From: Patescibacteria group bacterium
GTDB taxonomy: Bacteria; Patescibacteriota; Minisyncoccia; Phycocordibacterales; JAKFXT01
NCBI GenBank assembly: GCA_038063555.1
Contig: JBBTUX010000002.1
Location: 6,806 to 70,805 of the forward strand
Direction of reading: 5' to 3'
DNA: 64,000 nt
The translations under genes and the position numbers were made by a program. Positions 508-47,732 of this stretch are shown piece after piece (within the stretch, counting starts at the first letter, position 1; each line of letters begins with the position of its first letter). Under the pieces are notes generated by a model that made no database searches, was not told the origin of the DNA, and saw only the letters and a program-made list of their open reading frames with translations.

Positions 508-543
508 CTATACCACTATTCGCTAGAATAGTGGTATAGATTA
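504..543. repeat. Palindrome P1 of family A: 18-bp arms TAATCTATACCACTATTC / GAATAGTGGTATAGATTA around the loop GCTA
   Basis: I read it directly as an inverted repeat. It shares the core ATCTATAC[C/T]ACTATTC with P2 (853-890) and P3 (4154-4197). Confidence 0.9.
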
Positions 544-566
544 CGGAGTGTGGTAATATTGAGGTT

Positions 567-833
567 ATGAATTCCAGAAAGACCGAGGTGATTACAAAAG
601 GCTTGGCTAGCCACAGACGGTTGTATATAGTTGAAATGTTATTTAAAAAACCAGAAATGTCTGTTGAAGAAATTGCCAAAGTGGCCAAGATAAGTCACAA
701 AAATGCTTCTGGCCATATTAACAAACTGACTTCTTCTGGTTTGATAATGAAACGGCATGATGGTAATTTTGTTCGTCATAAACTGACAAAACGTGGCGAA
801 ACCATTCTCAAATTCTTGAGAATATTGGAATAG
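567..833 (+). CDS. ArsR/SmtB-like winged-helix HTH transcriptional regulator (88 aa)
   Basis: At 88 aa it has an ...ASHRRLYIVEML... recognition-helix region typical of the ArsR family. It is about 50% identical to the paralog at 60192-60461. Its 3' end encodes FLRILE* over a short palindrome (ATTCTCAA/TTGAGAAT at 804-823). Confidence 0.6.
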   Translation: MNSRKTEVITKGLASHRRLYIVEMLFKKPEMSVEEIAKVAKISHKNASGHINKLTSSGLIMKRHDGNFVRHKLTKRGETILKFLRILE

Positions 834-852
834 TGTAAAAAATAGAAGCGTA

Positions 853-890
853 CATCTATACTACTATTCGCGCGAATAGTAGTATAGATG
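853..890. repeat. Palindrome P2 of family A: a perfect 38-bp palindrome CATCTATACTACTATTCG|CGAATAGTAGTATAGATG
   Basis: I read it directly. It lies between the ArsR-like gene and the DGR target gene. Confidence 0.9.
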
Positions 891-973
891 TTACAGAAAA
901 ATGGTAAGAAAAAAGTAAGAATAAGAAAAAAAAGCTGATGGCAGACCACTGTCTTTTTTGCTAAAGTAAGGTC

Positions 974-2989
974 ATGGAAAAGTTTGAAGGTGATTTTCTT
1001 AAGGATAAATACTGGGGCAATAAAGAATTCCGGGAAGCCGCGGGGGTTTCGGCTCGCCGCACGAAAAAGCGTGAAAGCGAGAATGTGCCCAATACGCCAC
1101 CTGAGCGCATTGAGAACTACCTCGATCGATTTACCGAGATAACCGATCGGGAAGACCCTGAAAAACGCGAGCGCGGCATTTCTGCCATTGAGCGACTCGT
1201 GGAGAAGAAATACATCATCAAGGCAGAAAATATAACCGATGAATATATAAAAAATGTATTGCTCGGCAATGAAGCCGAACTTCTCGGATACGAGCGGGAA
1301 GATGTAAAAGACGAGCAGATACGAAAAACCGTGCTTGATTCGCTGGAGAATAAAATTCATTCGCCTCTCTCTACATATAGAGTGCCGATTGAACTTCGAG
1401 AATCATTGGAGAATATGATTATTACCGACCAGAAAGGGAGGATGAAGCAGTGGCTCGATTACCTTACAGGAGAAGAAGCGCGTCATGCTCCGGTTGCACT
1501 TCGTTATTGGGCATTCGCCGAAATGCTTAAACAGGGAGATTACGATCCTGTTAGCGGAGAATACAACAAACGCACTAACGCAACAGTTGCAATTTTCCCC
1601 GAACTCGACCAACAAGCCCTTGCCCTTGTTTTTGATGAAGTGGAACGACGAAGAACCGGCAAAACATCTGCACTTTCTACGGGCGATGATGCGCGACAGG
1701 CCGAATTGCGAGATCTGCTTCAACATGAGAATTTTGGTAAGCTCTATGCGTTCATGCAGGAGCATGTTCGTTCGCTAAAATTACCGACCGAGCGTCTTGT
1801 CATCACCGAGGGAGGATGGAAACTCTTTTCAAAAGATTCTTCACCATCTGATTTAACCGCTCCGCTCCAAGGGTATCAGACTAAATGGTGCATTGCGGGA
1901 GAAGGCCACGCTACCAGCTATCTGGAAACTGGTGATGTCTGGATTTATTTTTCAAAAGATGTGGACGGACAAAATACTATCCCTCGCGCGTGCGTTATAG
2001 ATAACAAAGAACACGGTATTACCGAAGTCCGAGGCATCATTTTCAATGAAGAAGTTAAACAACATCTTGACGACTACATCACGCCGGTAGTTGACGCAAA
2101 ACTCAAAGATATGGAGGGTGGTGAAAAATGGGCGGACAAAATGGATGATATGAAGAAGTTGCGTGAACTGCACTTCAAATATTTGCAAAAGGAACCATTG
2201 AATAAAAACGATTTAACTTTCTTGTATGAGATTGACCGACCAATACAGGAATCCGGATATGGTAAAGACCCGAGAATAGAAGAGCTGAAAAAAGGCAGAA
2301 ACAGACAAGAGGACATCAAAACAATGTGTGATTGTAAGGAAGAGTTTATTGCCACAGATTTTATTGATATAAAAGAAATCACACAAGTGTTTTGTGAAGA
2401 TACAGGAGATAAAATAACTTTCTTTGATTTTCGGGAAGGACAAAACAAAGAGAAACTTCTGCCGCTTATGGAATTGGCGAAAAGAATAAAAGAAACTGGA
2501 AGGGGAGCACGACCAGACATGTCATTTGAGGGAGGAATAGTAAATATAAATGTGCCAAAAGAAAAACTAAAGGACTTGCCGACGGCCATTAAGTCATTCG
2601 AAGAGGCAGACAATAATTCACCCTCGTCTATTTGGGAAGAATTAAAAAAAATGCCATTTGCTACATTGGAGCAATCTTCTTTGGAACTTATTGTTCTTTC
2701 TTACAATAAAGACGTAGAAACAAGAAAATCATCAGAAAAAATAGTAGAAGATATGGATAAGCTAGGACTTAGACCAGCTACCTTTGGGGAATTAATTACT
2801 CTTGGCATAATTAAGCCCGTTTTTAACAAGAAAAACGAATATATTGTTGCTCTCGGCACAAAAGCTACTCTGGACGGCGGTGTTCGTGTCTCGGTCTTGG
2901 TCTGGTACGGTGATAAGCGTCTTCTGGATGGCGACGGGTGGACGATCGAGTGGGGCGAGCTTAGCCGTTTCCTTTGTCTCCGCAAATAG
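974..2989 (+). CDS. DGR target protein (671 aa) with a C-terminal variable region
   Basis: This long ORF lies immediately upstream of the TR and RT. Its last roughly 40 codons (VR 2868-2985) align without gaps to the TR, with conserved Trp and Gly scaffold codons (LDGGVRVSVLVWYGDKRLLDGDGWTIEWGELSRFLCLRK versus TR-frame LDGDIHVPNLDWNDGERSLNRNIWDNEWDDRNRFVCLRN). The N-terminal half is GC-richer than the C-terminal half. I recognised no other domain. Confidence 0.6.
   Translation: MEKFEGDFLKDKYWGNKEFREAAGVSARRTKKRESENVPNTPPERIENYLDRFTEITDREDPEKRERGISAIERLVEKKYIIKAENITDEYIKNVLLGNEAELLGYEREDVKDEQIRKTVLDSLENKIHSPLSTYRVPIELRESLENMIITDQKGRMKQWLDYLTGEEARHAPVALRYWAFAEMLKQGDYDPVSGEYNKRTNATVAIFPELDQQALALVFDEVERRRTGKTSALSTGDDARQAELRDLLQHENFGKLYAFMQEHVRSLKLPTERLVITEGGWKLFSKDSSPSDLTAPLQGYQTKWCIAGEGHATSYLETGDVWIYFSKDVDGQNTIPRACVIDNKEHGITEVRGIIFNEEVKQHLDDYITPVVDAKLKDMEGGEKWADKMDDMKKLRELHFKYLQKEPLNKNDLTFLYEIDRPIQESGYGKDPRIEELKKGRNRQEDIKTMCDCKEEFIATDFIDIKEITQVFCEDTGDKITFFDFREGQNKEKLLPLMELAKRIKETGRGARPDMSFEGGIVNINVPKEKLKDLPTAIKSFEEADNNSPSSIWEELKKMPFATLEQSSLELIVLSYNKDVETRKSSEKIVEDMDKLGLRPATFGELITLGIIKPVFNKKNEYIVALGTKATLDGGVRVSVLVWYGDKRLLDGDGWTIEWGELSRFLCLRK
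2868..2985 (+). repeat. DGR variable region (VR), 118 bp, at the 3' end of the target gene
   Basis: It aligns without gaps to 3288-3405, with identical 12-nt 5' and 8-nt 3' ends (CTCTGGACGGCG ... CTCCGCAA). TR AAY codons correspond to diversified VR codons (V, Y, D, D, I, S, K). About 42 of 118 positions mismatch, and only about half of those sit at TR adenines. Confidence 0.55.
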
Positions 2990-3287
2990 ATTTTTGAATT
3001 TTTGTCACTTTGCTTATGATTTAGATATTTTGATTTTGTTCTTTTCTTTTTTTAAATTAAAATAATAATGAGAGTAGATAATGAGTGCGCGGATAAATTC
3101 TTCGCAACATCGAAATCAGTAGAACACAGATCGGAATTTTTGCGTGATAAGTGCGTGAAAAGTGTGTCTGTGTTTTCTTTAAAAAAAGAAATCTACTTGG
3201 CGCATATACGTCTGGCATTATGATGCCGACTTAAATACAATGTATGGTTGCGACTATATGTGGTGGATTGCATGTGTATATGCGAAA

Positions 3288-3405
3288 CTCTGGACGGCGA
3301 TATTCATGTCCCGAACTTGGATTGGAATGACGGTGAGCGTAGTTTGAACAGGAACATCTGGGACAATGAGTGGGATGATAGGAATCGATTTGTTTGCCTC
3401 CGCAA
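3288..3405 (+). repeat. DGR template region (TR), 118 bp, adenine/AAY-rich, non-coding
   Basis: In the VR reading frame it carries 7 Asn (AAC/AAT) codons in about 39 codons. It lies 85 nt upstream of the RT. The ORF-track ORF 3248-3463 covers it and is probably not a real protein. Confidence 0.55.
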
Positions 3406-3469
3406 TTTAATTTCTTTCTCCGCCAGATATTTATTTTGGTGGAGTTTTCTTTTGACTCTCTAATTCCAA

Positions 3470-4183
3470 TTGTTTAATCAATTGGTTATGCCAGTAATTA
3501 GCAAAGCAAGTGTTAGAGACAGAGTTGTTCATAGGTTGGTTTATAACGCTCTTTATTATTACTTTGACTATAAATTTATTTATGATTCTTATAGTTGTCG
3601 AATTGGAAAAGGTACACACAAGGCACAGGCGAGATTCAGAAGTTTTGTTAATAAGGTTAGCAAAAATTATACGGCCTCCTGTTTTGTTTTAAAATTTGAT
3701 ATCAAAAAATGTTTTGAGAGTATTGATAAAAATATACTCAAAAATATACTTTCTTTTCATATTGAGGATAAAGGACTAAAAAGAATTATATTTTCTATAA
3801 TTGATAGTTTTGGAACGGGAATTCCTCTCGGGAATTTGACATCACAATTATTCTTGAATATTTATCTCCACGAGCTTGATTGGTATGTAAAACAATTTTG
3901 GGGGTGTAAATATTACCTGCGATATGCTGACGATATAATCATTATCTCCACCAACAAAGAGAAATTAGAAGAACTATATGCAAATTTAGAAATTTTTCTT
4001 AAAAACAAATTGAACCTCACTACTCACAAGAAAATCATTATTAGTATTTACTCGGGAATTGATATTTTGGGGTTGGTGTTTTTCCCGCAGTATCAACGCT
4101 TGCGACGCAGTACCGAAAGAAGAATAGAAAAAAGAAATAGCAAAATATTTAAACATCATCTATACCACTATTCCATGGAATAG
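3470..4183 (+). CDS. DGR-type reverse transcriptase (237 aa; apparently shortened at both the N- and C-terminus)
   Basis: It contains the RT motifs VRDRVVH (motif 1), CRIGKGTHKA (motif 2), FDIKKCFESID, the DGR-diagnostic GIPLGNLTSQLF motif and YADDIII (motif 5). Alignment from memory to Bordetella phage Brt starts at Brt motif 1 (the first roughly 55 aa are missing) and stops about 40 aa short. The last codons lie inside palindrome P3. Confidence 0.8.
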   Translation: MFNQLVMPVISKASVRDRVVHRLVYNALYYYFDYKFIYDSYSCRIGKGTHKAQARFRSFVNKVSKNYTASCFVLKFDIKKCFESIDKNILKNILSFHIEDKGLKRIIFSIIDSFGTGIPLGNLTSQLFLNIYLHELDWYVKQFWGCKYYLRYADDIIIISTNKEKLEELYANLEIFLKNKLNLTTHKKIIISIYSGIDILGLVFFPQYQRLRRSTERRIEKRNSKIFKHHLYHYSME

Positions 4184-4197
4184 TGGTATAGATGATG
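4154..4197. repeat. Palindrome P3 of family A: a perfect 44-bp palindrome CATCATCTATACCACTATTCCA|TGGAATAGTGGTATAGATGATG
   Basis: I read it directly. It overlaps the RT stop codon (TAG at 4181-4183) and shares its core with P1 and P2. It also creates the spurious mirror ORFs ending ...LYHYSME. Confidence 0.9.
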
Positions 4198-4266
4198 TTG
4201 ACGGTAACACTGGCAATGCAATATTGTAGCCTCTCTTAACAAAAGCTTAACAAAGGATATTTTTTT

Positions 4267-4971
4267 GTGTATGGTGTTTTCATGGCTACGTTTTATATAG
4301 TGGCAACGCCGATTGGGAATCTTGAGGACATGACTTTCCGGGCGATTCGTATTTTGAAGGAGGTGGATATTATATTGTGCGAAGATACACGGGTAACACA
4401 AAAATTACTTAAACATTATGAAATTAACGATAAACAGCTTTCTACATATAACGCACAAAAAAGCTCGGTTAGTTTCAGTAAAATTAGCAATTGGATAAAA
4501 GAAGGGAAAAATTTGGCGTTAGTGACTGACGCGGGAACTCCAGGAATATCAGACCCGGGGAGTGAACTTGTGGAAAAATTAAAGAGTGAGTTTAGTAGTG
4601 AAGAGCTCAAAATTGAGCCAATACCGGGGGCTTCGGCGATTGTTGCGGCTATGTCCGCCGCAGGTATCCCTGCGGCGGAATGGACCTTTTTGGGATTTTT
4701 ACCGCACAAAAAGGGCAGGGAGACCTTGTTTAAGGAAATTGCTAAAGGAGAGAGAACTTTTGTTTTTTATGAATCCCCACACAGGATTATGAAAACTTTG
4801 GAAAAGTTGGCACAAGTAATACTTGATAATCGCAAAGTTGCGGTGTGTAAAGAATTGACCAAAATTCACGAAGAATTTGTAAGGGGGAGCGCAAAGGAAA
4901 TATTTGCTCACTTTAGAAAAAACCCCGACCGTGTCCGTGGGGAATTTGTGGTCATAGTTTCTAAATGTTAA
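4267..4971 (+). CDS. rsmI: 16S rRNA (cytidine1402-2'-O)-methyltransferase
   Basis: It has a tetrapyrrole-methylase fold N-terminus, FYIVATPIGNLEDMTFRAIRILKEVDIILCEDTR, and GISDPG. The true start is probably the M of MATFYIV at 4282. Confidence 0.75.
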   Translation: MYGVFMATFYIVATPIGNLEDMTFRAIRILKEVDIILCEDTRVTQKLLKHYEINDKQLSTYNAQKSSVSFSKISNWIKEGKNLALVTDAGTPGISDPGSELVEKLKSEFSSEELKIEPIPGASAIVAAMSAAGIPAAEWTFLGFLPHKKGRETLFKEIAKGERTFVFYESPHRIMKTLEKLAQVILDNRKVAVCKELTKIHEEFVRGSAKEIFAHFRKNPDRVRGEFVVIVSKC

Positions 4972-4980
4972 AATACCTTT

Positions 4981-5253
4981 ATGCAGAAAAATTTTTTCAT
5001 AGTTTTGGGTATATTTGTAGCTTTGCTTCCATTTATCTCAATTCCCAATTCATATAAAACGCCTGTGTACATTATTCTTGGCGCAACCATGGCCATTGCA
5101 AGTTATAGAGAAAGATATTTAAAAAAGAAATTATTAATTCCTCATTTGAGGCGTTTCAAGAAGTTTGCGTCATCGACTCCTATTGCAAATGATATTTCAG
5201 TAAGGACTAATTCTCTTGATGAAAACGCCACCTCTAAAGGTACACAGCAATAA
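4981..5253 (+). CDS. Hypothetical small membrane protein
   Basis: This 90-aa ORF has one or two predicted TM helices. It overlaps the next ORF in a different frame. Confidence 0.25.
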   Translation: MQKNFFIVLGIFVALLPFISIPNSYKTPVYIILGATMAIASYRERYLKKKLLIPHLRRFKKFASSTPIANDISVRTNSLDENATSKGTQQ

Positions 5254-6469
5254 AGGTAGATTATTTGTCTACACTTTGGCCACGGGCGCTATTTTTGCGG
5301 GCGGCTTTTTTGGTTTGCAGTATTTCCCAGGATTTCTCCCGTCACTTACAACATATAAAAGCCAATTCATAGCGCAAGGTTCCGGTCTTTCTCCCAAAGC
5401 AGAAAAGGTAATGCATCTTAAAACACCAGAACCACTCAAAGCGATTTATATGAGTCAGTGTGTTGTGGGCACCAAAGATTTTAGACAAGATTTAGTGGAT
5501 CTTATTAAGAGAACAGAGTTAAACGCTGTTGTTATTGATATTAAAGATTATACGGGGAAGATTGCTTTTGAAACTGATAATCCAAAACTTAAAAACTCTG
5601 TATCGGGTGATTGCGGTGCAACCGATATGAAAAATTTTATTCTCTCGCTTCATGATGATGGCATATACGTGATTGGACGCGTTACTGTTTTCCAAGACCC
5701 ATATATGACGAAAACACGACCGGACTTAGCGGTTAAAAAGAAAAGTGATAATGATATTGTCTGGAAAGATTATAAAGGACTTTCTTTTGTTGATGTGGGA
5801 GCCCGTGAACACTGGGATTATATTATTGAAATAGCTAAAGAAGCATACGGTATTGGATATGACGAAATAAATTTTGACTATATAAGATTTCCTTCGGACG
5901 GTGACATGAAAGATATTGATTACACATATTCTCGTGGCAAAACAAAAGCAGAGGTCTTAAGAGAATTTTTTAGTTACTTGCACGATAATTTAAAAAGTCT
6001 AGGAGTAATAGTATCAGCCGACCTTTTTGGAATGACCACAACCAATACCGATGACTTAAATATAGGACAAATTTTGGAATACGGCCTTATGTATTTTGAT
6101 TATGTTTCCCCAATGGTTTATCCAAGTCATTACCCGCCAAATTTTAATAATTGGAAAAATCCAAATCTATATCCCGGAGAAGTCGTTTCATTTTCTATGG
6201 GTAAAGCAGTAGAAAGAGCGCTTGCCACTAGCACAACATTGAACCTTATAAATTCAATTCCTATAGCAAGTACTACTCCGCAACTTTATACCAAACCTGT
6301 TTGGGATAAATTAAAACTTCGTCCTTGGCTTCAAGATTTTCAATATGGTGGCACATATGGCCCCAAAGAGGTGCGAGCACAAATTGACGCTACTTATAGT
6401 GTGGGACTCACAAGTTGGATGCTTTGGGCGCCATCCAACAGATACACTGAATCAGCCCTTCTTAAATAG
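5216..6469 (+). CDS. Hypothetical membrane-anchored protein, possibly a glycoside-hydrolase-like (TIM-barrel) domain protein
   Basis: It has an N-terminal TM helix followed by a roughly 380-aa soluble domain. I recognised no definitive motif. Confidence 0.3.
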   Translation: MMKTPPLKVHSNKGRLFVYTLATGAIFAGGFFGLQYFPGFLPSLTTYKSQFIAQGSGLSPKAEKVMHLKTPEPLKAIYMSQCVVGTKDFRQDLVDLIKRTELNAVVIDIKDYTGKIAFETDNPKLKNSVSGDCGATDMKNFILSLHDDGIYVIGRVTVFQDPYMTKTRPDLAVKKKSDNDIVWKDYKGLSFVDVGAREHWDYIIEIAKEAYGIGYDEINFDYIRFPSDGDMKDIDYTYSRGKTKAEVLREFFSYLHDNLKSLGVIVSADLFGMTTTNTDDLNIGQILEYGLMYFDYVSPMVYPSHYPPNFNNWKNPNLYPGEVVSFSMGKAVERALATSTTLNLINSIPIASTTPQLYTKPVWDKLKLRPWLQDFQYGGTYGPKEVRAQIDATYSVGLTSWMLWAPSNRYTESALLK

Positions 6470-26453: not shown

Positions 26454-27617
26454 ATGAATTATTTATTGCGCATGCGAAATATCCTGCTGTTTATTCTCGC
26501 AATTTTCTCCATTGTTTTTTATGGGAATAGAAAAAAAATAAATAAGACGCCGAAGAAAATACTCATTATACAACTGGCGAAGTTGGGGGATATGGTTTGT
26601 ATGACTCCTGTTTTTCATGCGCTACGGCAGAATGTGCCTCAAACAAAAATATATGTAATGGGGGATGGAACAAATAAAGAATTACTAAAAGGCAATAATG
26701 ACATTGATGAATATTTAGTATTTCAACATGGGAGGTTGTTTTCTATGGTTAAGCAATTAAGGCGCGAAAAAATAAACGTTGCATGCATTCGTGGTACAGG
26801 GTTTGTTCCTCTTGTGGTAGCACTTCTTGCTGGTATACCCTTAATTATTACACCAAAAGTTACAAAAGGAAAGGCCCTTCAAACAAAAACCTACGAGTTG
26901 CTTCTTCCTTACGTGAAGACAGTTGATTTTAGATTTGGGGAATATATGCCACGCCAATTTTTACGATTGCTTGAACCGTTAGGTATAGTATCTTCCGACA
27001 CTAAAAAATATTTGGTATTTTCAGATACTGCACTTGAAAAAACAAACCAATTTTTAAAGCGTAATGGAATAGAATCGGAAAAATATCTTGTAGTAGGGAT
27101 ATCACCATCCGCAGGAAATAAAATAAAGGAATGGCCGGAAGAACGTTTCGCTGAAGTTGCTGATTATCTTATACAAAAACATAATGCGAAGGTGCTACTA
27201 ATTGGAGGACCACATGACGATCAAAAAGTGAAAAAGTTGATTAAAAATATTAAAAATATTGCAGGTGTTGTAAATACTCAAGGGGAATTTAATGTAGATG
27301 AGCTCAAGGCACTTGTCTCCAAGCTGGACCTGTTTATAAGCGTTGATACTGGCCCGATTTATATTGCGGAAGCATTTGGTGTACCCACAATTGATATCAT
27401 AGGACCAGTAGATGAAAAAGAGCAGCCCCCAATTTCAAATATTCACAGAATTGTTTATTGGAAGGACCGTAAAGCACCAGCAGTTCATATTTTGAATACG
27501 CGCATTTATGATGCTTATGAAGCCAGAAAACAGATAGAGTCAATTTCTGCTAAGGACGTTATCTCAACTTTTGAAGAATTAATCAGAGATTCAGAGTTCA
27601 GAAGGTTTGTGTGCTAA
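26454..27617 (+). CDS. GT9-family glycosyltransferase (heptosyltransferase-like)
   Basis: It has KILIIQLAKLGDMVCMTPVFHALRQ at the N-terminus and a GT-B C-terminal half with ...SVDTGPIYIAEAFGVPTI... Confidence 0.6.
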   Translation: MNYLLRMRNILLFILAIFSIVFYGNRKKINKTPKKILIIQLAKLGDMVCMTPVFHALRQNVPQTKIYVMGDGTNKELLKGNNDIDEYLVFQHGRLFSMVKQLRREKINVACIRGTGFVPLVVALLAGIPLIITPKVTKGKALQTKTYELLLPYVKTVDFRFGEYMPRQFLRLLEPLGIVSSDTKKYLVFSDTALEKTNQFLKRNGIESEKYLVVGISPSAGNKIKEWPEERFAEVADYLIQKHNAKVLLIGGPHDDQKVKKLIKNIKNIAGVVNTQGEFNVDELKALVSKLDLFISVDTGPIYIAEAFGVPTIDIIGPVDEKEQPPISNIHRIVYWKDRKAPAVHILNTRIYDAYEARKQIESISAKDVISTFEELIRDSEFRRFVC

Positions 27618-28503: not shown

Positions 28504-28664
28504 TCATTCATTTACCACGACACCATCCACATTTGTTTTCGTGACATTTATTGAGTGCGCACGTTTACAATAAAAAAAAGACATGTCGGTAAGCAAACTC
28601 AATTTTAACAAACTAAGGTTATTGAGATTATTGAAGAGTTATTAGTTGATTTATATAAAGGAAA

Positions 28665-28702
28665 ATAAAAAAACCGCTCGGCCTATATTGTGGCAAAGCG
28701 GG
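28665..28702 (-). terminator. Rho-independent terminator for the minus-strand SDR gene
   Basis: The minus strand reads CCCGCTTTGCCACAATATAGGCCGAGCGG followed by TTTTTTTATTTT, which is a GC stem plus T-tract, immediately 3' of the SDR stop. Confidence 0.5.
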
Positions 28703-28704
28703 AA

Positions 28705-29409
28705 TTATCGTGTCTCTAACTCCTCAATTCTCGGTGGGCCACGCAGGATGCGCACGAGTTTGTATTGGAAGTTACTGCGATACAAACTCATTATTTGTTC
28801 TGCTACCCACTTGGGATCAAGGAGAGAGGATAAGTCGTCGCGGGGGTTACTTCTCCAGAACTCGGTGTTCATTCCGGAAGGTCCTACTACCAAGACTTTG
28901 CCAATACGCTCGTCAAGCGAGAGAGAGCTGGCAAGCATGGCGGTTCCCGCTTTGATTCCAGTGTAGACTGGTTCACGGAGACGGGGAATCCACTGCGAGG
29001 TAGAGGTGACAGCGATGAACCCGTTTAGCACCCCCTGCTTTCGCAGAATCCTTTGCATCATCATGGCGGGTGCCAGGAAGCCGACATTGGTCATTTTCTG
29101 GATACTTGAATCCCCGAGTTCGTCGATAGTTCCTTTTTCCTCGAATCCGGCGGCGTAAATAAGCAGGTCAATCGGACCAACTTTGCCGATTAGTGAATCT
29201 AAGTCGACAGAAAGCTCGTCGGCATTAGGGCCTATATAAAAGTTGAAGAATCGAACGTTTTTTTCCTGGGGATCGTTTCTGCCGGTAATGAAAACGGTAT
29301 CGCTTTCTTTGGCGAAAAAACGTGCCAAGGCAAGTCCTAATCCGGATGTTCCGCCGACAATTAATATTTTTTTCATGACAATTCCTCGGTGACTAACTAT
29401 TTCGCACAT
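28705..29409 (-). CDS. Short-chain dehydrogenase/reductase (SDR) family oxidoreductase
   Basis: It has MKKILIVGGTSGLGLALA, a TGxxxGxG Rossmann motif. Its GC content is much higher than the surrounding sequence. Confidence 0.65.
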   Translation of the reverse strand: MCEIVSHRGIVMKKILIVGGTSGLGLALARFFAKESDTVFITGRNDPQEKNVRFFNFYIGPNADELSVDLDSLIGKVGPIDLLIYAAGFEEKGTIDELGDSSIQKMTNVGFLAPAMMMQRILRKQGVLNGFIAVTSTSQWIPRLREPVYTGIKAGTAMLASSLSLDERIGKVLVVGPSGMNTEFWRSNPRDDLSSLLDPKWVAEQIMSLYRSNFQYKLVRILRGPPRIEELETR

Positions 29410-29498
29410 TAATACTAAAATTCTTCTTTGTCAAATTTTGTTTTTCAAAAAAATGTCGGAGAAGCGAGTGCGTCTCCGACATGTTGCTACGGCCAGGA

Positions 29499-30824
29499 TC
29501 ACAGGAAGTAATCCCCCCGATCAGCGACGGCCTCAAGTTCTTCCGGATTGATCCCGCTTTTGATGGCGTCTTCAATCCAGTCGTTGACTGGTTTGTAGAG
29601 GCAGGTTACTTCGCGGCACTCATGCTCTGCGTTGAAATGTCGCAGTATTGAGGTGGTGGCTTCTTGTGTTTTGGCCACGCTTCCGGTATCCGCATAAGCA
29701 TCTTTCCCGGCGATGAAGGCCTTTCCAACTCCGCGATGTGCTGGGCAGTTGTAAAGTCCGCGTGGAGAGAGAACCTGGCGCAAGGCCTGCATGTGGCAGG
29801 TGTTCGGTTGCTTGGTGAAATCTCGCCATGTGTCGCTTTCCAGGAGCCGTAGATTGGTACTCTCCACGATGTTGAATGTGGGGGTTTCCAGTTTTTTGGC
29901 TTCGTTGATTGCAATTCGGATGCGGGCGATTGTGCTCCTGTAATCCTCAATCGCCCCGGTGTCCATCACTTCGCCGCCCTCCGGAGAGCGCCGAAGAAAC
30001 GGCTTGGCGGAAAAATAGCTGAACCCCGAATCATGCGCCAATTTTGCCGCAGGAACTATCTCATCGATATTCGGCACAACTGACACCTTCTCTGCGCTTT
30101 CGGCTCCACGCCAGGTGACAATAAAGGAAAAACCGATTTGAAGCCCCGGGTTTTTTTCGCGAATACCCGGTACTCCGGCACAAATTTCCTCCAATGACAC
30201 ATTTTGCTTCGGTTGATGCATGGCTTGAAAGGTTTGGTCATACGCGGAGTCAAGCGAAAGGCGCACCCAGTCACCGGGAGTGAACAAATGTGCCACCTCG
30301 CGGATTTTCTCGTTGCGGGAACCGTTGCTGACGACCGCCACTTGAATGTTGCGCTCTTTTAGGAAGCGAACGGTGTCTCCAAATCGAGGGTAAAGAGTCG
30401 GTTCGCCCCCCCCGATTAGAATTACCGAACGCAGCCCCCGCTCAATCAGTTGCGAAAGAGAAGACAGCAGTTTTTCGTGGGCATACTTGACCGGACTGTT
30501 CAGAATGTCCCAGTCGATGCAATGTCCACACGCGTAATTGCAGGCGGTGGTCATGTCCAAGTTCATGGAAAGCGGTCCGAAGTCCACGGGCATTTCCGGC
30601 GGAGCGTTGCCTTTCAAGAGGGCATGGTTCACCGCTCTTTGCCACTTCACATACGAAATGACCCTGGGCAGAACCGACTCCTGCCGCAATTTGGCGGTGA
30701 AATCATGACGCTGGTCGAGCTTGGGGCTCGGTGGCACCGTTTTCCCCGAGTTTGAAGCAATCTCCAAGTTTGGCTGTAAACCGCGCCTGGATTTAATCTT
30801 TATTACTTGTCTGGTCAGGTTCAC
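29499..30824 (-). CDS. Radical SAM domain protein of unknown specificity, with extra C-terminal Cys residues
   Basis: It has CNYACGHC, a CxxxCxxC motif, at about aa 95 and a glycine-rich SAM motif ILIGGGEP. The C-terminus carries additional Cys (CHMQ, CPAHRG, CREVTC). It lies in a GC-rich island. Confidence 0.65.
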   Translation of the reverse strand: MNLTRQVIKIKSRRGLQPNLEIASNSGKTVPPSPKLDQRHDFTAKLRQESVLPRVISYVKWQRAVNHALLKGNAPPEMPVDFGPLSMNLDMTTACNYACGHCIDWDILNSPVKYAHEKLLSSLSQLIERGLRSVILIGGGEPTLYPRFGDTVRFLKERNIQVAVVSNGSRNEKIREVAHLFTPGDWVRLSLDSAYDQTFQAMHQPKQNVSLEEICAGVPGIREKNPGLQIGFSFIVTWRGAESAEKVSVVPNIDEIVPAAKLAHDSGFSYFSAKPFLRRSPEGGEVMDTGAIEDYRSTIARIRIAINEAKKLETPTFNIVESTNLRLLESDTWRDFTKQPNTCHMQALRQVLSPRGLYNCPAHRGVGKAFIAGKDAYADTGSVAKTQEATTSILRHFNAEHECREVTCLYKPVNDWIEDAIKSGINPEELEAVADRGDYFL

Positions 30825-31193
30825 GATGCTCTCCTAAAGTTTCATTAGTTCGGAAGGATTTAAAAGATCGGTCTAGTATGAAACTAGTCTTGTCCAACGT
30901 TAACACTTTTCTAGACACATTCCAATGTTTACATTTTTGTGGGGTAAAAGTGTCAAAGTGTTTAATTTTTTAAAAATTAGCAATTTGTCGCTTCTTCGAA
31001 CGTTTGCGCCAAGGAGCTTCAGAGAGAAGTGTGTGGGATGAAATAAAGATGCGGGTTGGCAAGTGGCGACCTGAATGGTTCTCACGGCGCAAGTAAGGGA
31101 TTTTTGCAATACAGGCGCGAAGGGGTCGAGAGGAACCACACGCGTTTTTTTTTCATGTTATACTGACGCACCAAACCATAACCAGAGGCGCCC

Positions 31194-32147
31194 ATGAGAA
31201 TGTCAATTATATTGCCTGTTTATAACGAAGCGGGTAGCATAGAGGAGCTTTACCTTCAAATTAAGAATGAGCTTGCTTTAGTGTCTTTTAAATATGAAAT
31301 TGTTGCTGTAAACGACGGCTCTACTGATAAGAGTTTAGAAATACTTGAGAAAATCGCCAAGGACGACCATAATTTCCGAGTACTCAATTTAAGCAAAAAC
31401 TATGGCCAAACAGCGGCGCTTTCCGCGGGACTTGACTTTGCTTCGGGCGAAGTAATTATACCGATGGATTCGGATTTACAGAATGATCCGGCGGATATCC
31501 CAAAATTCTTGGAGCTCATAGATGAGGGGTATGACGTAGTTTCCGGCTGGAGAAAGGACAGAAAAGACAATTTTCTTCGCCGCTTGCCATCCCAGATAGC
31601 CAACAAGCTCATTTCCTACATCACAAATGTGAAACTTCATGATTATGGCTGTACCATGAAGGCCTACAGTAAAGAAATAATAAAGGATGTGCGCTTCTAC
31701 GGAGAGATGCATCGCTTTATGCCGGTTTATGTTGCCTGGCACGGCGCGCGAATAAAAGAGCTCGTCGTAAATCATCGGGCGAGAATTCACGATAAGTCAA
31801 AGTACGGAATTGGCAGGACTTTCCGCGTAATTCTGGATCTTCTCACGGTTAAATTTCTGATGACTTATTTGGGAAGGCCGATGCACTTTTTCGGCTGGGC
31901 GGGACTTTTCTCTCTTTTTTTAAGTTTTATATCAGGAGGCGGGGCTATTTTTTTGAGAATATTTGAAGATATTCATTTTACTAGAACGCCCCTTCCGTTG
32001 TTGACAGTTTTTTTAGCTATCATGGGTGTCCAGTTTATCTTAATGGGATTATTGGCCGAAATTTTGATCAGAATTTATCACGAGCCACGTGGCAAGAATA
32101 CCTATACACTAAGAAGTAAAATAAACTTTGAGCATGAGTCAGTTTAA
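31194..32147 (+). CDS. GT2-family polyprenyl-phosphate glycosyltransferase (DPM1/ArnC/GtrB-like) with C-terminal TM helices
   Basis: It has ILPVYNEAGSIEEL, VNDGSTDKS and the DSD motif (PMDSDLQNDP). Two C-terminal TM helices are present. Confidence 0.75.
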   Translation: MRMSIILPVYNEAGSIEELYLQIKNELALVSFKYEIVAVNDGSTDKSLEILEKIAKDDHNFRVLNLSKNYGQTAALSAGLDFASGEVIIPMDSDLQNDPADIPKFLELIDEGYDVVSGWRKDRKDNFLRRLPSQIANKLISYITNVKLHDYGCTMKAYSKEIIKDVRFYGEMHRFMPVYVAWHGARIKELVVNHRARIHDKSKYGIGRTFRVILDLLTVKFLMTYLGRPMHFFGWAGLFSLFLSFISGGGAIFLRIFEDIHFTRTPLPLLTVFLAIMGVQFILMGLLAEILIRIYHEPRGKNTYTLRSKINFEHESV

Positions 32148-41534: not shown

Positions 41535-42482
41535 ATGTCACGTCTAAAAATCGCTGTTTTGGGAGCCAGTGGTATTGGTAAATTCTACGTAAGAGAATTT
41601 TTGCATGCAGGAGCGGAGGTAGTGGCAATTTTGGGAAGTAGTAAGGAGACTGCAGAAAAAACTGTCGCCAAACTTTCTTCAGAATATATTTTTTCGCCTA
41701 AAGCGTACTTTGATTTGGATATGCTTATACAAAATGAGTCACTCGATGCAGTTAGTGTATGTACCCCTCCCGAATTTCATTACCCACAGGTAAAGAGGTG
41801 CCTTGAAGCGGGTTTACATGTTTTATGCGAAAAGCCATTTATTTTAGATTCTGAATGTGATAACAGCCAAAAAACTACTGAGCTTGTTAAGCTGGCTGAA
41901 AAGAAAAAATTGGTGCTCGGGGTGAATATGCAGTGGCCTTCGGTTTTAAAATATTTTAAGCCCTTTGTTGACTTGTCCAATGTTCAAGATTTTTTTATGT
42001 TTATGCAACCAAGTGTCAAAGGGAAAGAGATGCTTATTGAACAGCTCTCCCATATGAACAGTGTTCTTATAAGACTCATCCCGAATGGTAAAGCCGAGAA
42101 AATAGAATTCTCAACACAAGCACCAGAGGCGGAAGAAATTGATGTCCATTTTGGGTATTTTAATAAAAACTCTAAGAGCAAGGTTCATTACAAATTCAAA
42201 CATAAAGCAGACAGGCCAAGGGACATTCGATTTTCTATTAATGGAATTGAATTTAAAAGGCATGTAGGGGAAGATTATAAGCAGAAATTCATAACCGATA
42301 AAAATGAGATTGATATAGAAGATCCTTTCAAAATTTCAATCGGAATGTTTATTGGGGCAATAGAAGGCAAGGGCTCTCCATTAATAAGCGGGGAAGAGAT
42401 AATTGAAAATATTGCATTACAAGACAGAATAATTGCAGAATATACAAAACGCACAATTATGCCGATAAGATTGACTTTGTGA
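41535..42482 (+). CDS. Gfo/Idh/MocA-family NAD(P)-dependent oxidoreductase
   Basis: It has an N-terminal Rossmann LKIAVLGASGIGKFY and ...EKP... in the linker. Confidence 0.55.
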   Translation: MSRLKIAVLGASGIGKFYVREFLHAGAEVVAILGSSKETAEKTVAKLSSEYIFSPKAYFDLDMLIQNESLDAVSVCTPPEFHYPQVKRCLEAGLHVLCEKPFILDSECDNSQKTTELVKLAEKKKLVLGVNMQWPSVLKYFKPFVDLSNVQDFFMFMQPSVKGKEMLIEQLSHMNSVLIRLIPNGKAEKIEFSTQAPEAEEIDVHFGYFNKNSKSKVHYKFKHKADRPRDIRFSINGIEFKRHVGEDYKQKFITDKNEIDIEDPFKISIGMFIGAIEGKGSPLISGEEIIENIALQDRIIAEYTKRTIMPIRLTL

Positions 42483-44093: not shown

Positions 44094-44915
44094 ATGCCAA
44101 AAAATAAACTTTTTTCTCGCGAGCACAGAAATGAAAATAAACTGGTGAAGGTTGGGAAAGTGGTAATTGGTGGACCGGAGTTTATTGTTATGGCTGGACC
44201 ATGTGCGGTTGAGAATCTAAAGCAAATACAGAAAATTGCCTTTAGCGTTAAAAGCTCCGGCGCCGAAGTTTTGCGAGGCGGGGCTTGGAAGCCAAGATCT
44301 TCCCCTTATAGTTTCCAAGGTTTGGAAACTGAAGGTCTAGAATATTTAAAAAAAGCAGCAGAAGAAAACAACCTCTTAATAGTAAGTGAGATAATGGATC
44401 ACCGTGATATTCCGCTTTTCTTGGAAAATGTGGACATTTTGCAAGTTGGAGCCAGAAATATGCACAATTTCACTCTTCTCAAAGAGCTAGGTAAAATTAA
44501 TAAACCAATCTTGTTAAAACGTGGCATGAGCGCGACTATAGATGAATTTTTACATGCGGCAGAATATATTCTCTCTGGAGGAAACGAAAACGTTATTCTT
44601 TGTGAACGTGGCATTCGTACTTTTGAAACGGCAACCAGGAATACTTTAGATATTTCGGCTATACCAATTGTTAAAAAACTTTCCCATTTACCAATAATAG
44701 TTGATCCAAGTCATGCTGCCGGGAAGAACAAAGAAATCATTCCCGCTCTGTGTAGGGCGGCTTTAGCCGCGGGTGCCGATGGTCTTTTGCTTGAAGTCCA
44801 TCATGACGCCGATAATGCGCTTTGCGATGGAGATCAGGCGCTTTCCGAAAAAGAATTTGCCGATCTTATGATTGATCTTAAAAAAGTTGCTCCAGTTTTT
44901 GGTAGAAAAATATGA
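44094..44915 (+). CDS. Class I-beta 3-deoxy-ulosonate-phosphate synthase (DAHP synthase / KDO8P synthase family); its motifs sit closer to DAHP synthase
   Basis: It has GPCAVEN, RGGAWKPRSSPYSFQGLETEGL, LQVGARNMHNF and GADGLLLEVHHDADNALCDGDQAL. Canonical KdsA has KANRSS and QIPAFLxRQTDL instead, while the motifs here match type I-beta DAHPS from memory. Confidence 0.6.
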   Translation: MPKNKLFSREHRNENKLVKVGKVVIGGPEFIVMAGPCAVENLKQIQKIAFSVKSSGAEVLRGGAWKPRSSPYSFQGLETEGLEYLKKAAEENNLLIVSEIMDHRDIPLFLENVDILQVGARNMHNFTLLKELGKINKPILLKRGMSATIDEFLHAAEYILSGGNENVILCERGIRTFETATRNTLDISAIPIVKKLSHLPIIVDPSHAAGKNKEIIPALCRAALAAGADGLLLEVHHDADNALCDGDQALSEKEFADLMIDLKKVAPVFGRKI

Positions 44916-44976
44916 CGCATATTAACAAATAAAAAAACGCACAGGCCGGTTTTTGGCCCATGCGGTCGTGTGGAAC

Positions 44977-45624
44977 TCAGCCCAGGGTTCTGTGTCGAGC
45001 AATAATGGGTTTCCATAGCCCTTTGACGTCAAGTAGCATCTGCAGGACTTCCCGCACAACGCCATAGCCACCTTTTGCTTTGGTGACATAGTCCACTTCG
45101 GCTCTTGCCTCCGGTGCTGCGTCTTGCGGAGCAGCAGAGAATCCCGCACGGCGAATGAGGGAAATATCCTGAATATCGTTCCCGATAAACAAGACTTCAT
45201 CCCACCCGATGTCAAACTCTTTCAGCAGTGCTTCAACTGCGGCGACCTTATCTTCGACGCCCTGTAGGCACCGAGCACCAAGATCTTCAGCTCGTTGTCG
45301 CACTGTTGGAGACTTGCGCCCGCTGATGAGAACAACAGGTATATCGTGTCTCAGGCATTCCTTGATAACAATGCCGTCGCCAGTAAAGAAGAAGTACCCC
45401 TCAATTCGGCCGTCGGCACCAGATGATAGTTGAAGGAACCTCTCGCTCGGCACGCCGTCGCCATTGCATGGGACGAGCTTTTGAGTAATCCCGGCTGTTT
45501 CAATGTTAAGTCCATCCGATGTTTTGGAAATATAAAACCTGTCATCGGTGTGGACGCCGTCTACGTCCGTTACCGCCATGCGCACTTTTTGAAGTGCGAC
45601 ATTATTGCTATTTCCATGCATCAT
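44977..45624 (-). CDS. kdsC: HAD-family 3-deoxy-ulosonate-8-phosphate phosphatase
   Basis: It has the HAD motif I VTDVDGV and a motif IV-like FIGNDIQD. It is GC-rich. Confidence 0.6.
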   Translation of the reverse strand: MMHGNSNNVALQKVRMAVTDVDGVHTDDRFYISKTSDGLNIETAGITQKLVPCNGDGVPSERFLQLSSGADGRIEGYFFFTGDGIVIKECLRHDIPVVLISGRKSPTVRQRAEDLGARCLQGVEDKVAAVEALLKEFDIGWDEVLFIGNDIQDISLIRRAGFSAAPQDAAPEARAEVDYVTKAKGGYGVVREVLQMLLDVKGLWKPIIARHRTLG

Positions 45625-46390
45625 GATCTCCTTTTTGTTGTCGTGCGACCATGATGGTGCGCACCTGTTCTAGTTCGTCAGGCATGTTCACGCCCAAATT
45701 TTTCCAATCGCCCTTAACGACACGTATACGGACGCCGTTTTCAAGAATTCGCATTTGCTCCACCCCCTCACGTAATTCAAGAGGAGTCCGGGACATTTGC
45801 AGAAATTCGTACAAAAATTCACGTCTAACTACCATAACTCCGATTACATGATAAAGGTCAACTGGAGAGTTGGTGCTATGCGCAAAGGGGACTGGGGCTC
45901 TAGAAAATGACAATACATTATTTTTTAAATCTGTCAAAACCTTGACGACACTTGGAGAGCGCCACATTTCTTCATCATGGATTTTGTCTGCAGCAATGGA
46001 CACCTGGAGCTCGGGGTCTTCCTGAAGTAGAGCCACACATTGATCTATTGCTTCGGCTGGGTAGAGAGGTTCGTCTCCCCAAATGATTGCAATAACATCA
46101 GGAGTGAATTCGGTAAATAATTTAGTCGCGGCGCCGGCGCGATCGCTTCCTGTGGGTAGCTCGCTTGGTGTCATGATGACCGGTACTCCTAAAGGTTTCA
46201 CTATATTTGCAATACGTTCGGAGTCAGTTGCAACCACCAGCGCATCCAAAAGATGCGCTTTCTTTGTACGATCTATTGTGTGTTGTATAAGGGGCTTGCC
46301 AGATATATCGGCGAGCATTTTTTCTGGGATTCGGGTAGAGCCTAGGCGGGCGGGGATTATCCCAAGAACTTTAAGGCGGGGGTTTTGCAT
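45608..46390 (-). CDS. kdsB: 3-deoxy-manno-octulosonate cytidylyltransferase (CMP-Kdo synthetase family)
   Basis: It has LGIIPARLGSTRIPEK and ...WGDEPL... It aligns with E. coli KdsB along its length, from memory. It is GC-rich. Confidence 0.65.
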   Translation of the reverse strand: MQNPRLKVLGIIPARLGSTRIPEKMLADISGKPLIQHTIDRTKKAHLLDALVVATDSERIANIVKPLGVPVIMTPSELPTGSDRAGAATKLFTEFTPDVIAIIWGDEPLYPAEAIDQCVALLQEDPELQVSIAADKIHDEEMWRSPSVVKVLTDLKNNVLSFSRAPVPFAHSTNSPVDLYHVIGVMVVRREFLYEFLQMSRTPLELREGVEQMRILENGVRIRVVKGDWKNLGVNMPDELEQVRTIMVARQQKGDHDAWK

Positions 46391-46492
46391 ATGTATGGAT
46401 ACTTGGAAATTGTATAGAAAGTTTCGTTGAACAGCAATGTTTATTATACATTCGTATGTGGTTCTATAAATAAATTTTTAAATAAATCAAAT

Positions 46493-46528
46493 AAAAAATG
46501 CATACACTCCGCGAGGAAAATGTATGCA
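46493..46528 (-). terminator. Rho-independent terminator downstream of the minus-strand glycosyltransferase gene
   Basis: The minus strand reads TGCATACATTTTCCTCGCGGAGTGTATGCA, a 9-bp stem, followed by TTTTTTATTT. Confidence 0.5.
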
Positions 46529-46559
46529 CGTGATGCTGTACTTAACTTAGTGATGCAGG

Positions 46560-47732
46560 TCAACTTCTTGGCTTGGAAGCGACTTCTTCCAGATAATCGC
46601 AGACCCGGCCGAGGGATTTCTGTGGAGGAATAAAGCGACTTTCAAGCTCTCGTCCCCACTCATCGTCCAATGTTCGAGAGAGCTCCGCAATGGCTTCCTC
46701 CCCGTCGCGTGCGCAAAGAGAACGCCCATCGGCTACGTCTCCCCAATAGGGCCATTTCTGGAGAAGTTCTTTTTCGAAATACTTCCGCCCCCGCCCGCCG
46801 AAATTCCGAATCACCACGTTTCCGAGGAGAACGGCTTTGAGACCTTCCACTGAAAGGCTTCCGGCAAAGACTGCGTCCGCCGCGATGTTTAGAACTTCAG
46901 AGGACGGCGCCCCATGGACTTTGCTCAAAACACGCAACGTCCGTGGTGCCCACTTTCGAATCCTCCCCATTTCGTTCTTGCAAAAATCGGGGTTATCGAA
47001 ACTTGTGTTGAGAGCTGGGTGAAGTCTGGGAATAAAAACGAGGGGGTGTATTTCCGAAACCTCTGTAACCGCTTTCAGAACCATCTCGCAATCTTCGGCG
47101 TAGAGGTCTCGAATGCCGTGGGACCACCAGAGCACAATCTTTTCCTCTTCTGATATCCCATTGTCTTTCCGGAATGTCAGCCGTATTTCCTCCCGTTGCG
47201 GGAGAAGCTCAAGAAGGCCGTCGAAGAGAGGTTGGCCGACGACTTTCACAGCGCGCGAATCCATGGAAGGATGCATTTTGCGAATGGCATCTGCATGTCC
47301 TTCGTTAATTGCACACCAGTTTCCATACCCCACTTCGCGCCACATCGGAAAGGCGTGATTGAAGTAATTGTCGGCCGGGAAGAACAGAGGGATCTTCATT
47401 GTGGAAACGACATCGGCAACTTCTCGGCAGAGATTTGGATTGGCTTGCACATCGAGACCAACCGAAATCGCGTCGAACTTGGAGTATGAGTAGAAATCCG
47501 ATGCCGAACGCGCCAAGAAAGGATTTCCGACACCTCCCTTGGCGAAGATGTTTGTTGCTTGCCCTCTGGAATCGGCCAGAAGTTGCACATTATGCCCCCG
47601 ACGAATCATTTCTCTTGCCAACGCCAAGTGGACGTTAGCGCTTCCTCCATCGGCGGAAACGAACAAGAATTTTTTCATTTGATGAACCAACCCCTTCTTT
47701 GGTTGTTGGAAAATCTGATGGCATTTAATCAT
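46560..47732 (-). CDS. Putative GT-B glycosyltransferase, possibly a capsule KpsS-like or Kdo transferase
   Basis: It is 390 aa, GC-rich and adjacent to kdsB. I verified no definitive motif; the functional guess rests on context and size only. Confidence 0.25.
   Translation of the reverse strand: MIKCHQIFQQPKKGLVHQMKKFLFVSADGGSANVHLALAREMIRRGHNVQLLADSRGQATNIFAKGGVGNPFLARSASDFYSYSKFDAISVGLDVQANPNLCREVADVVSTMKIPLFFPADNYFNHAFPMWREVGYGNWCAINEGHADAIRKMHPSMDSRAVKVVGQPLFDGLLELLPQREEIRLTFRKDNGISEEEKIVLWWSHGIRDLYAEDCEMVLKAVTEVSEIHPLVFIPRLHPALNTSFDNPDFCKNEMGRIRKWAPRTLRVLSKVHGAPSSEVLNIAADAVFAGSLSVEGLKAVLLGNVVIRNFGGRGRKYFEKELLQKWPYWGDVADGRSLCARDGEEAIAELSRTLDDEWGRELESRFIPPQKSLGRVCDYLEEVASKPRS

Follow-up and report, generated by a model that had tools for sequence, protein, structure and literature searches.

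We examined a 64,000-nucleotide stretch of DNA from a Patescibacteria group bacterium (GenBank assembly GCA_038063555.1, contig JBBTUX010000002.1, positions 6,806 to 70,805; hereafter the window, whose own coordinates are used throughout), in which two adjacent GC-rich genes lie inside an AT-rich glycan locus. Both are on the minus strand, one encoding a short-chain dehydrogenase/reductase (SDR) and the other a radical S-adenosylmethionine enzyme (rSAM). An earlier description made from the letters alone (the sequence-only reading) had already recognized them as such; the list of open reading frames (ORFs) bears out the strand, and Pfam matches to adh_short (E 4.7e-17) and Radical_SAM (PF04055, E 5.3e-15) bear out the identities. 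The terminators that it ascribed to the genes are also present, as a hairpin and U-tract after each. The island is a two-gene cassette in which rSAM and SDR each have their own terminator; the leader and the promoter region between the genes, both conserved, also belong to it.

The SDR occupies an ORF of 234 aa (28705–29409, minus strand) and qualifies as a classical short-chain dehydrogenase/reductase by its Gly-rich motif (GGTSGLG), its YxxxK motif (YTGIK), and its score against PF00106 (62.5 bits, cut-off 26.6); no NCBIfam equivalog was matched at its cut-off. Because homologues are 217–230 aa long and begin at the MKK position, the true start is probably ATG 29376 (223 aa), upstream of which the sequence GAGGA is found at 29383–29387. 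Directly past the stop codon is a terminator-like hairpin and U-tract (28667–28701, minus strand; ΔG −15 kcal/mol, z −4.0, with 0 of 200 shuffles as stable). Between the two genes, the conserved intergenic region (29410–29498, minus strand) contains the rSAM terminator (hairpin and U-tract, 29446–29482; ΔG −18.8, z −3.4) and, downstream of it, a TTGACA box (29429–29434) that resembles an SDR promoter (promoter-like site 29448–29420). An inverted repeat (I5) was also detected there. An exact-match scan of JGI metagenomes with an invariant intergenic 31-mer gave 0 matches.

The rSAM gene (29499–30824, minus strand) encodes a member of an uncharacterized family. Its product is 441 aa long from GTG 30824, compared with 422 aa from ATG 30767 in the NCBI annotation, and the longer form is backed by alignment with the ATG and the AGGAG ribosome-binding site (RBS) of a homologue at locus L003 (related loci are referred to by L numbers) and by independent gene calls. 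An exact-sequence look-up of the 422-aa NCBI protein returned no record. The CNYACGHC cluster motif (CX3CX2C), the PF04055 match, and a partial TIM-barrel place the protein in the Radical SAM superfamily; in alignment A1, a GGGEP motif is also seen, and four cysteines in the C-terminal part are invariant.

Upstream of the rSAM gene, the 5′ leader and promoter region (30825–30975, minus strand) carries an AGGAG RBS at 30831–30835 and the promoter elements TTGACA-17-TGTAAA at 30928–30956. The leader (30863–30968, minus strand) shares 71% nucleotide identity over 112 nt with positions 7859–7970 of L003, where the rSAM protein is 63% identical, and a palindrome or hairpin, GACTAGTTTCATACTAGAC, at 30870–30888 falls within the shared part. 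This region is the right limit of the DNA conserved with other cassettes. Folding of the leader was not significant against shuffles (z −0.7), and Rfam returned no RNA family, whether for the whole window at the gathering threshold or for 28.3–31.4 kb at E ≤ 1; the shared leader may be an operator or an uncharacterized cis-regulatory element. Farther out, a GC-rich (~50%) non-coding spacer extends from the rSAM promoter region to a divergent GT2 gene (30985–31193; 200-bp GC 0.505 at 31001–31200, no ORF). It has no homologue among 84 related loci and a fold z of −0.1, and may be a remnant of the donor or belong to the leader of GT2. On the other side of the cassette, a methyltransferase gene and an 84-aa ORF lie between the SDR and a native, AT-rich GT9 (heptosyltransferase-family) glycosyltransferase gene (26454–27617, plus strand; Pfam Glyco_transf_9 E 6e-25), whose product matches NCBIfam heptosyltransferase models, all below their curated cut-offs.

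The base composition of the cassette stands out within the window, which averages 37.8% GC. In 1-kb windows, GC rises from 0.35–0.37 at 27–28.5 kb to 0.497–0.534 at 29.0–30.5 kb, and in 200-bp windows the step is abrupt, from 0.37 to 0.485–0.555 at about 28.70 kb. A dip to 0.405–0.45 at 29.1–29.5 kb spans the 5′ portion of the SDR gene along with the intergenic DNA, after which GC holds at 0.505–0.565 until 30.8 kb and falls to 0.34 at 30.8–31.0 kb. The two genes and their spacer (28705–30824) reach 51.2% GC, a value that no other 2.12-kb window of the 64 kb reaches (mean 0.376, standard deviation 0.039); over 28650–30900, the limits drawn in the sequence-only reading, the value is 0.504. That reading had described a sharp jump over the SDR and rSAM genes, from roughly 33% to well over 50% GC, and a return to AT-rich DNA at about 30.9 kb. 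The jump itself is confirmed (51.2% against a mean of 37.6%), but the flanks are less AT-rich than claimed, at 36–40% (left 0.357, right 0.403), and the SDR gene reaches 48.5% overall. Likewise, the drop on the right is real but is followed by a GC-rich patch at 31.0–31.2 kb (0.505) and then by the GT2 gene at 41%.

Codon usage follows the same pattern. With 46 other ORFs of the window as reference (GC at third codon positions, GC3, of 0.316 ± 0.059), GC3 is 0.528 for the SDR gene (z = 3.6; overall GC 0.485) and 0.609 for the rSAM gene (z = 5.0; overall GC 0.535). By synonymous-codon likelihood, SDR (z −4.2) and rSAM (z −4.4) are the two most deviant of 52 window ORFs. The outcome of the k-mer check was mixed. 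In a segment-to-segment comparison of GC-corrected tetranucleotide signatures, the island correlates with four background segments at r 0.43–0.58, whereas those segments correlate with one another at 0.64–0.80; in sliding 2-kb windows, however, the island is not singled out, and the most deviant stretches are 16–18 kb and 58–61 kb. The island is thus set apart by the segment comparison only. The core genes of the window are AT-rich (GC3 0.33 for SecA, 0.32 for MurB), which identifies the island, not the surrounding locus, as the odd part; on the same ground, we rejected the AT-rich locus as the foreign component. In composition and codon usage, then, the cassette is atypical for its host, as is characteristic of an acquired genomic island.

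To place the cassette among its relatives, we drew on about 1961 rSAM homologues. GTDB species genomes contain 501 relatives, and the best 80 are mostly from Planctomycetota, with a few from Patescibacteria. Within this set of best relatives, an SDR homologue occurs at all eight Patescibacteria-type loci and at 0 of the ~75 Planctomycetota loci, 66–70 of which instead have a GFO/IDH/MocA (GFO) oxidoreductase ORF directly before the rSAM gene. Across 13 Patescibacteria loci, rSAM and SDR genes are adjacent in 12 and no more than 2 kb apart in the other, and 8 of the 13 have a GT9 gene no farther than 10 kb from the cassette; four Patescibacteria loci beyond those of the best-relative set have the two genes adjacent, with GT9 adjoining or near. 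The rSAM–SDR pair forms a module, in many cases together with GT9, that is conserved in the glycan loci of Patescibacteria. The identity matrices of the two proteins correlate at r = 0.75, indicating that the genes travel and evolve as a unit.

The sequence-only reading had proposed as a check whether best hits fall outside the host lineage. They do not: the nearest relatives of the window rSAM are all from Patescibacteria, and a neighbor-joining tree gathers all nine included Patescibacteria copies into one clade (93% bootstrap), with the window and L005 copies joined at 100%. Planctomycetota copies are 49–59% identical to the window rSAM, compared with 63–88% for the closest Patescibacteria copies. 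A source outside the host lineage therefore finds no support, and with the SDR partner restricted to Patescibacteria-type loci, the tree points to exchange or replacement inside the phylum. In six Patescibacteria loci of 42–55% GC (L001, L007, and L091–L094), the composition of the pair is native, so suitable donors exist within the phylum.

Further evidence for transfer comes from L005, a 2.6-kb contig that was binned to an uncultured 'Saccharibacteria' metagenome-assembled genome (MAG) and is also found in Hainich groundwater assemblies. It holds the last 344 codons of the rSAM gene as well as a complete SDR gene, which are 86% and 81% identical to those of the window in nucleotides and 88% and 79% in amino acids; the intergenic region is nearly invariant, and the stretch CCGACATTTTTTTGAAAAACAAAATTTGACAAA is fully so. 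Synonymous divergence (dS) of 0.57 for rSAM and 0.77 for SDR, together with a nonsynonymous-to-synonymous ratio (dN/dS) of 0.11–0.14, indicates that both copies are functional and share a fairly recent common ancestor. Nucleotide similarity stops at the SDR stop codon, and as the GC step at ~28.70 kb falls at the same place, we set the left boundary of the island at the SDR terminator. Beside its SDR, L005 has a convergent GT9 gene with just 51% amino-acid identity to the window GT9, saturated dS, and dN 0.44; in the window, two extra genes, those for the methyltransferase and the 84-aa ORF, separate SDR from GT9. The L005 cassette is also GC-richer than its flank (GC3 0.56 and 0.52 versus 0.35). 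In all other pairs of loci, GT9 and SDR diverge alike (45–55%). The loci L007 and L093 served as a control: their cassettes are 86% and 81% identical, and here 10 kb of DNA is collinear at 75–81% nucleotide identity, with flanking proteins at 62–90%. This is the pattern expected of vertical descent, and the window–L005 pair departs from it. The similarity of the cassette is therefore discordant with that of its flank, as judged from a single flanking gene and neighbor-joining trees.

Taken together, these data make it probable that the cassette was horizontally exchanged within the phylum into this Patescibacteria glycan locus. The copy would have been brought into an AT-rich genome (~36.5% GC) rather than having evolved in place; the donor would have been another Patescibacterium of about 50% GC, and the entry route most likely recombination into a pre-existing glycan locus. 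The cassette would still be short of drifting to the base composition and codon usage of its host. It has reached fixation in the population and is subject to purifying selection. Direction, donor GC content, and recombination route are the parts of this model that we infer. Since the rSAM–SDR module is already widespread in Patescibacteria glycan loci, exchange or replacement of an existing module fits better than the addition of a new function. The proposal of a "recent horizontal acquisition of sugar-modification genes" thus holds as far as transfer is concerned, given the composition and the discordance with L005, but the cassette is not a new function for the locus, and "recent" is a relative term at dS ~0.6.

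Several observations weigh against this reading. The trees are neighbor-joining trees of 84 sequences only. L005 has low coverage and an unverified assignment to 'Saccharibacteria'; it offers one flanking gene, truncated at the contig end, whose orthology to the window GT9 is assumed. No donor or near-identical copy was found in the databases, the closest sequences beyond L005 being 63–66% identical. Hallmarks of mobility are missing: a tRNA scan found no tRNA genes in the window and no meaningful repeats flank the island, giving no integration signature, and there is no integrase or transposase at the island, where the neighboring ORFs are glycan genes. Searches of IMG/VR, INPHARED phages, and PLSDB plasmids found no member of the rSAM family, only generic matches to the rSAM core at ≤ 32%. 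With neither mobility marks nor phage or plasmid copies, the vehicle and mechanism of transfer can only be inferred. Finally, in 7 of the 13 Patescibacteria loci GC3 is higher in rSAM than in its neighbors, and in none is rSAM AT-richer than the host; the SDR beside a GC3-rich rSAM is compositionally native in L012 and L019. Part of the GC excess could therefore be specific to the gene.

Taken further, this last point becomes the view that the GC elevation is intrinsic to the gene, through selection on codons, mRNA, or expression, and that the cassette was inherited vertically with no transfer at all. The GC3 excess persists even between copies saturated at synonymous sites, the six most AT-rich Patescibacteria hosts (L012, L019, L049, L003, L006, and the window) always have rSAM GC3 above 0.5, and none of the 13 loci has an ameliorated rSAM copy, the lowest rSAM GC being 45%. 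This absence points to either recurrent replacement or a gene-specific constraint. An intrinsic bias nevertheless sits poorly with the six loci where the pair is native and with Planctomycetota, in which rSAM GC stays within −0.07 to +0.02 of the flanks and, in the AT-richest locus (L047), lies below the flank. Nor is the elevation confined to rSAM, as the window SDR and part of the non-coding DNA are GC-rich too, while core genes such as SecA lack the bias. Vertical inheritance would also leave 88% identity to L005 beside a 51% flank unexplained, given the L007/L093 control, and we consider this account unlikely. A technical alternative would be an assembly or binning chimera in which GC-rich reads of another organism were stitched into an AT-rich contig, a concern raised by the metagenomic origin of the genome and by several GC-rich patches on one contig. 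An independent assembly (L085, from Logan), however, contains 5.5 kb across the island, including both junctions, at 100% identity, and two further assemblies match over 4.8 and 3.3 kb at 100%, the latter truncated inside the rSAM gene. Eight contigs, the longest of 202 kb and all of the same population, carry the identical SDR, and the three loci retrieved with it have the same gene context. Native sequence borders the island on both sides, and the module occupies the same kind of locus in other Patescibacteria. A chimera is almost certainly not the explanation.

If transfer did occur, its source might still lie elsewhere. Direct acquisition across phyla, with a GC-rich donor lineage such as Planctomycetota (the phylum in which the rSAM family is most widespread), would agree with the predominance of that phylum among the best 80 relatives, in which the gene is native, and with an island GC inside the low-GC Planctomycetota range. 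The Patescibacteria-only clade and the lower identity of the Planctomycetota copies speak against it, as do the GFO gene in place of the SDR in their loci and the leader common to the window and the Patescibacteria-type locus L003, and we regard such an acquisition as very improbable. An older event, in which an ancestor of the Patescibacteria clade acquired the gene and amelioration stayed incomplete, draws on the midpoint-rooted tree, where this clade is nested among Planctomycetota sequences, a topology that a single old transfer between phyla, out of GC-rich donors, could have produced. Yet synonymous sites are saturated between most Patescibacteria copies, by which time the donor signal should have vanished; several of these copies are fully native, and the GC excess is greatest in the window copy (+0.17). 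We give this scenario only a slight chance, and exchange within the phylum remains the reading that we favor.

Glycan loci are classic sites of gene exchange, and the textbook cases, O-antigen and capsule cassettes, offer the natural comparison. Like them, the window cassette consists of sugar-modification genes inside a glycan locus with host-atypical composition and codons, has no mobility genes, lies between conserved genes of the locus, and has a phylogeny discordant with its flanks. The polarity is reversed: textbook cassettes are AT-rich in genomes of higher GC content, whereas here a GC-rich cassette resides in an AT-rich host, which is a Patescibacterium. The unit is also only two genes, from a phylum-conserved module, which suggests that an existing copy was replaced rather than that a new serotype function was gained. 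A general literature search on horizontal gene transfer in Patescibacteria glycan genes found nothing relevant.

What the pair does can be approached through fold and gene context. No NCBIfam model matches the rSAM at its cut-off; the best, viperin_w_prok (NF038283), scores 63.2 bits against 180 and covers residues 85–236 only, and TIGR04278 scores 26 bits against 450. Membership among viperins or prokaryotic viperins was rejected because the scores are far under the cut-offs. The AlphaFold2 model of the protein (mean predicted local distance difference test, pLDDT, 88.8) has as fold neighbors BlsE (21.4), SuiB (18.8), MoaA (18.2), DesII (18.1), viperin (17.8), and anSME (17.5), as well as SkfB. 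The top fold matches are SPASM/twitch enzymes; the protein lacks the canonical SPASM spacing and matches no SPASM model at its cut-off. The model suggests a resemblance to twitch/SPASM-type enzymes, a group with several members that use nucleotides or nucleotide sugars as substrates. The invariant C-terminal cysteines (C324, C341, C384, and C389 in the 422-aa numbering) are candidate ligands of a predicted auxiliary Fe–S cluster.

Known enzymes are nonetheless distant. The window rSAM is just 10–19% identical to BlsE, DesII, MoaA, BtrN, SpeY, anSME, and SkfB, and its four invariant cysteines are spaced differently from the canonical seven-cysteine motif of SPASM enzymes. Viperins, the CTP/NTP 3′-deoxy-3′,4′-didehydro synthases, provide the best profile and Protein Data Bank sequence matches over the rSAM core (residues ~84–236) and act on a nucleotide substrate; the window protein is 120–150 aa longer, with an unrelated cysteine-rich C-terminal domain, and is encoded in a glycan locus, not in a defense context. 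A parallel in gene arrangement is AprD4/AprD3, a radical-SAM 1,2-diol dehydratase and its NADPH-dependent reductase that carry out C3′ deoxygenation in apramycin biosynthesis, since there too a sugar pathway has its rSAM gene beside that of an NAD(P)H-dependent reductase. By analogy, their logic of a radical step, a keto intermediate, and a reduction is plausible for the window pair, but the fold score of AprD4 against the rSAM model is just 8.6, and the pair does not classify as a radical deoxygenation pair of this type.

Gene context agrees. Genes for GT9, HldE- or RfaE-domain-II-like adenylyltransferases, and ADP-sugar Nudix enzymes recur beside the rSAM gene in both phyla, a feature in common with the ADP-heptose pathway and its GT9 heptosyltransferases (HldE/RfaE, WaaC/WaaF/WaaQ). 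Among the Planctomycetota loci, 13 have a GT9-like ORF close to the rSAM gene, and 14 have an HldE-like ORF, named by sequence inspection. L003 encodes an RfaE-domain-II adenylyltransferase (150.7 bits, cut-off 181.5), and a YffH/AdpP-type (ADP-sugar) Nudix gene is found there and also, in 24 Planctomycetota loci, downstream of rSAM. Unlike in the established pathway, the window GT9 scores below every curated heptosyltransferase cut-off, and no HldE, GmhA, or GmhB was identified in the window. Context and fold together suggest the tailoring of a nucleotide sugar, with GT9 as the presumed user of the product. It is possible, on a tentative view, that rSAM and SDR modify a nucleotide sugar, perhaps of the ADP-heptose type, for GT9 transfer to an envelope glycan. 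The rSAM would oxidize or dehydrate the activated sugar by a radical mechanism, the SDR, or in Planctomycetota the GFO enzyme, would use NAD(P)H to reduce the keto intermediate, and GT9 would move the resulting epimerized or deoxygenated sugar onto the envelope glycan. Counting against this assignment, its basis is gene neighborhood and distant fold similarity (template modeling score ~0.5). A search, within a full-text library, for literature on radical SAM enzymes with heptose or nucleotide sugars found no paper on the rSAM family.

Two further genes were noted in this connection. The window has a GFO/IDH/MocA oxidoreductase gene of its own (41535–42482, plus strand), of native composition, 11 kb from the rSAM gene and beside a sugar C-methyltransferase gene; its product is homologous to the Planctomycetota GFO proteins encoded before rSAM, at 27–33% identity (best matches E 1e-37 to 1e-43). 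In Streptomyces sp. BHT-5-2 p1 (L153, 720807–721715), a 29%-identical rSAM homologue is encoded, in a stretch without listed annotation, next to genes for a GHMP kinase, an NAD-dependent epimerase/dehydratase, and a sugar ABC transporter, once more a setting of sugar genes. We set this homologue aside as a functional clue because it is too distant.

Patescibacteria have tiny genomes, and their surface glycans are thought to mediate host attachment. If within-phylum exchange is correct, the window offers a clean, internally controlled case of gene exchange between Patescibacteria lineages, and it illustrates that compositional islands in MAGs of this kind can be genuine rather than binning errors. 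The transfer itself is an ordinary event of known kind; the uncharacterized rSAM family is the more interesting lead. Its module with an oxidoreductase, in places with GT9, has no curated family, is common to Patescibacteria and Planctomycetota, and is biochemically testable. More speculatively, this widespread family (~2000 proteins, present in ~500 species genomes and native in the ~70 Planctomycetota loci examined) might act with a dedicated NAD(P)-dependent oxidoreductase, an SDR or, in Planctomycetota, a GFO-family enzyme, to tailor an ADP-heptose-type nucleotide sugar for GT9, which would give a modified envelope sugar by a new route that needs no oxygen. In AT-rich Patescibacteria the rSAM gene would then be replaced time and again from GC-richer relatives. 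Such recurrent replacement would account for the lack of ameliorated copies.

The sequence-only reading had listed further islands of the same kind, one of which, at 44.9–47.75 kb, is indeed compositionally foreign. This second GC-rich block, outside the cassette (44977–47732, minus strand; GC 0.491), comprises genes with GC of 0.47–0.515 and codon z of −2.5 to −3.7, and its GC-corrected signature correlates with the first island at r 0.65, compared with 0.48–0.59 for the background. All three of its genes are on the minus strand. They encode a KdsC-like HAD phosphatase (44977–45624; NF007019 107.6 versus 208, TIGR01670 102.2 versus 106.95), the CMP-Kdo synthetase KdsB (45608–46390; NF003952 235.9 bits, cut-off 193; Kdo, 3-deoxy-D-manno-oct-2-ulosonic acid), and a near-orphan 390-aa protein (46560–47732) that has no Pfam or NCBIfam match and only two homologues (~40%) among 5.8e9 proteins. 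The predicted structure of the last (pLDDT 76.7) has a GT-B fold like that of WecB, MurG, and GT4 enzymes, so that its earlier designation as a putative glycosyltransferase is plausible at the fold level; it is encoded upstream of kdsB and may be a novel Kdo-related transferase. The adjacent kdsA (44094–44915, plus strand) is native and AT-rich (GC3 0.32), next to the GC-rich, opposite-strand kdsC-like and kdsB genes, and the Kdo pathway thus appears to be a compositional mosaic. Kdo genes and a GT9 'heptosyltransferase' are normally tied to the inner core of lipopolysaccharide (LPS). Patescibacteria are generally described as having neither LPS nor an outer membrane; this one encodes genes for Kdo synthesis and activation (44094–46390) as well as GT9 (26454–27617).

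The remaining two candidates fared less well. In the putative target ORF of a diversity-generating retroelement (974–2989), GC in the 5′ half is raised as described, but mainly at first codon positions (GC1 0.59, GC3 0.43), and the signal is weak. A search within positions 1–6000 for a template-repeat/variable-repeat pair on the same strand, allowing A-specific mismatches, found none. Near the putative target, an ORF of just 237 aa (3470–4183) matches a reverse transcriptase profile (RVT_1). The ppsA gene (from 62563) had likewise been proposed as a similar island. Its GC3 is 0.50, but its codon deviation is mild (z −1.4) and its tetranucleotide signature is native-like (r 0.69–0.75). It directly follows a glycerate-kinase (MOFRL) gene of GC3 0.23 (window 61221–64000), and this adjacency is kept in L001 (3937–7695; 64% identity for ppsA and 53% for MOFRL). 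In view of its native-like tetranucleotides and conserved synteny, ppsA probably does not belong with the islands of this type.

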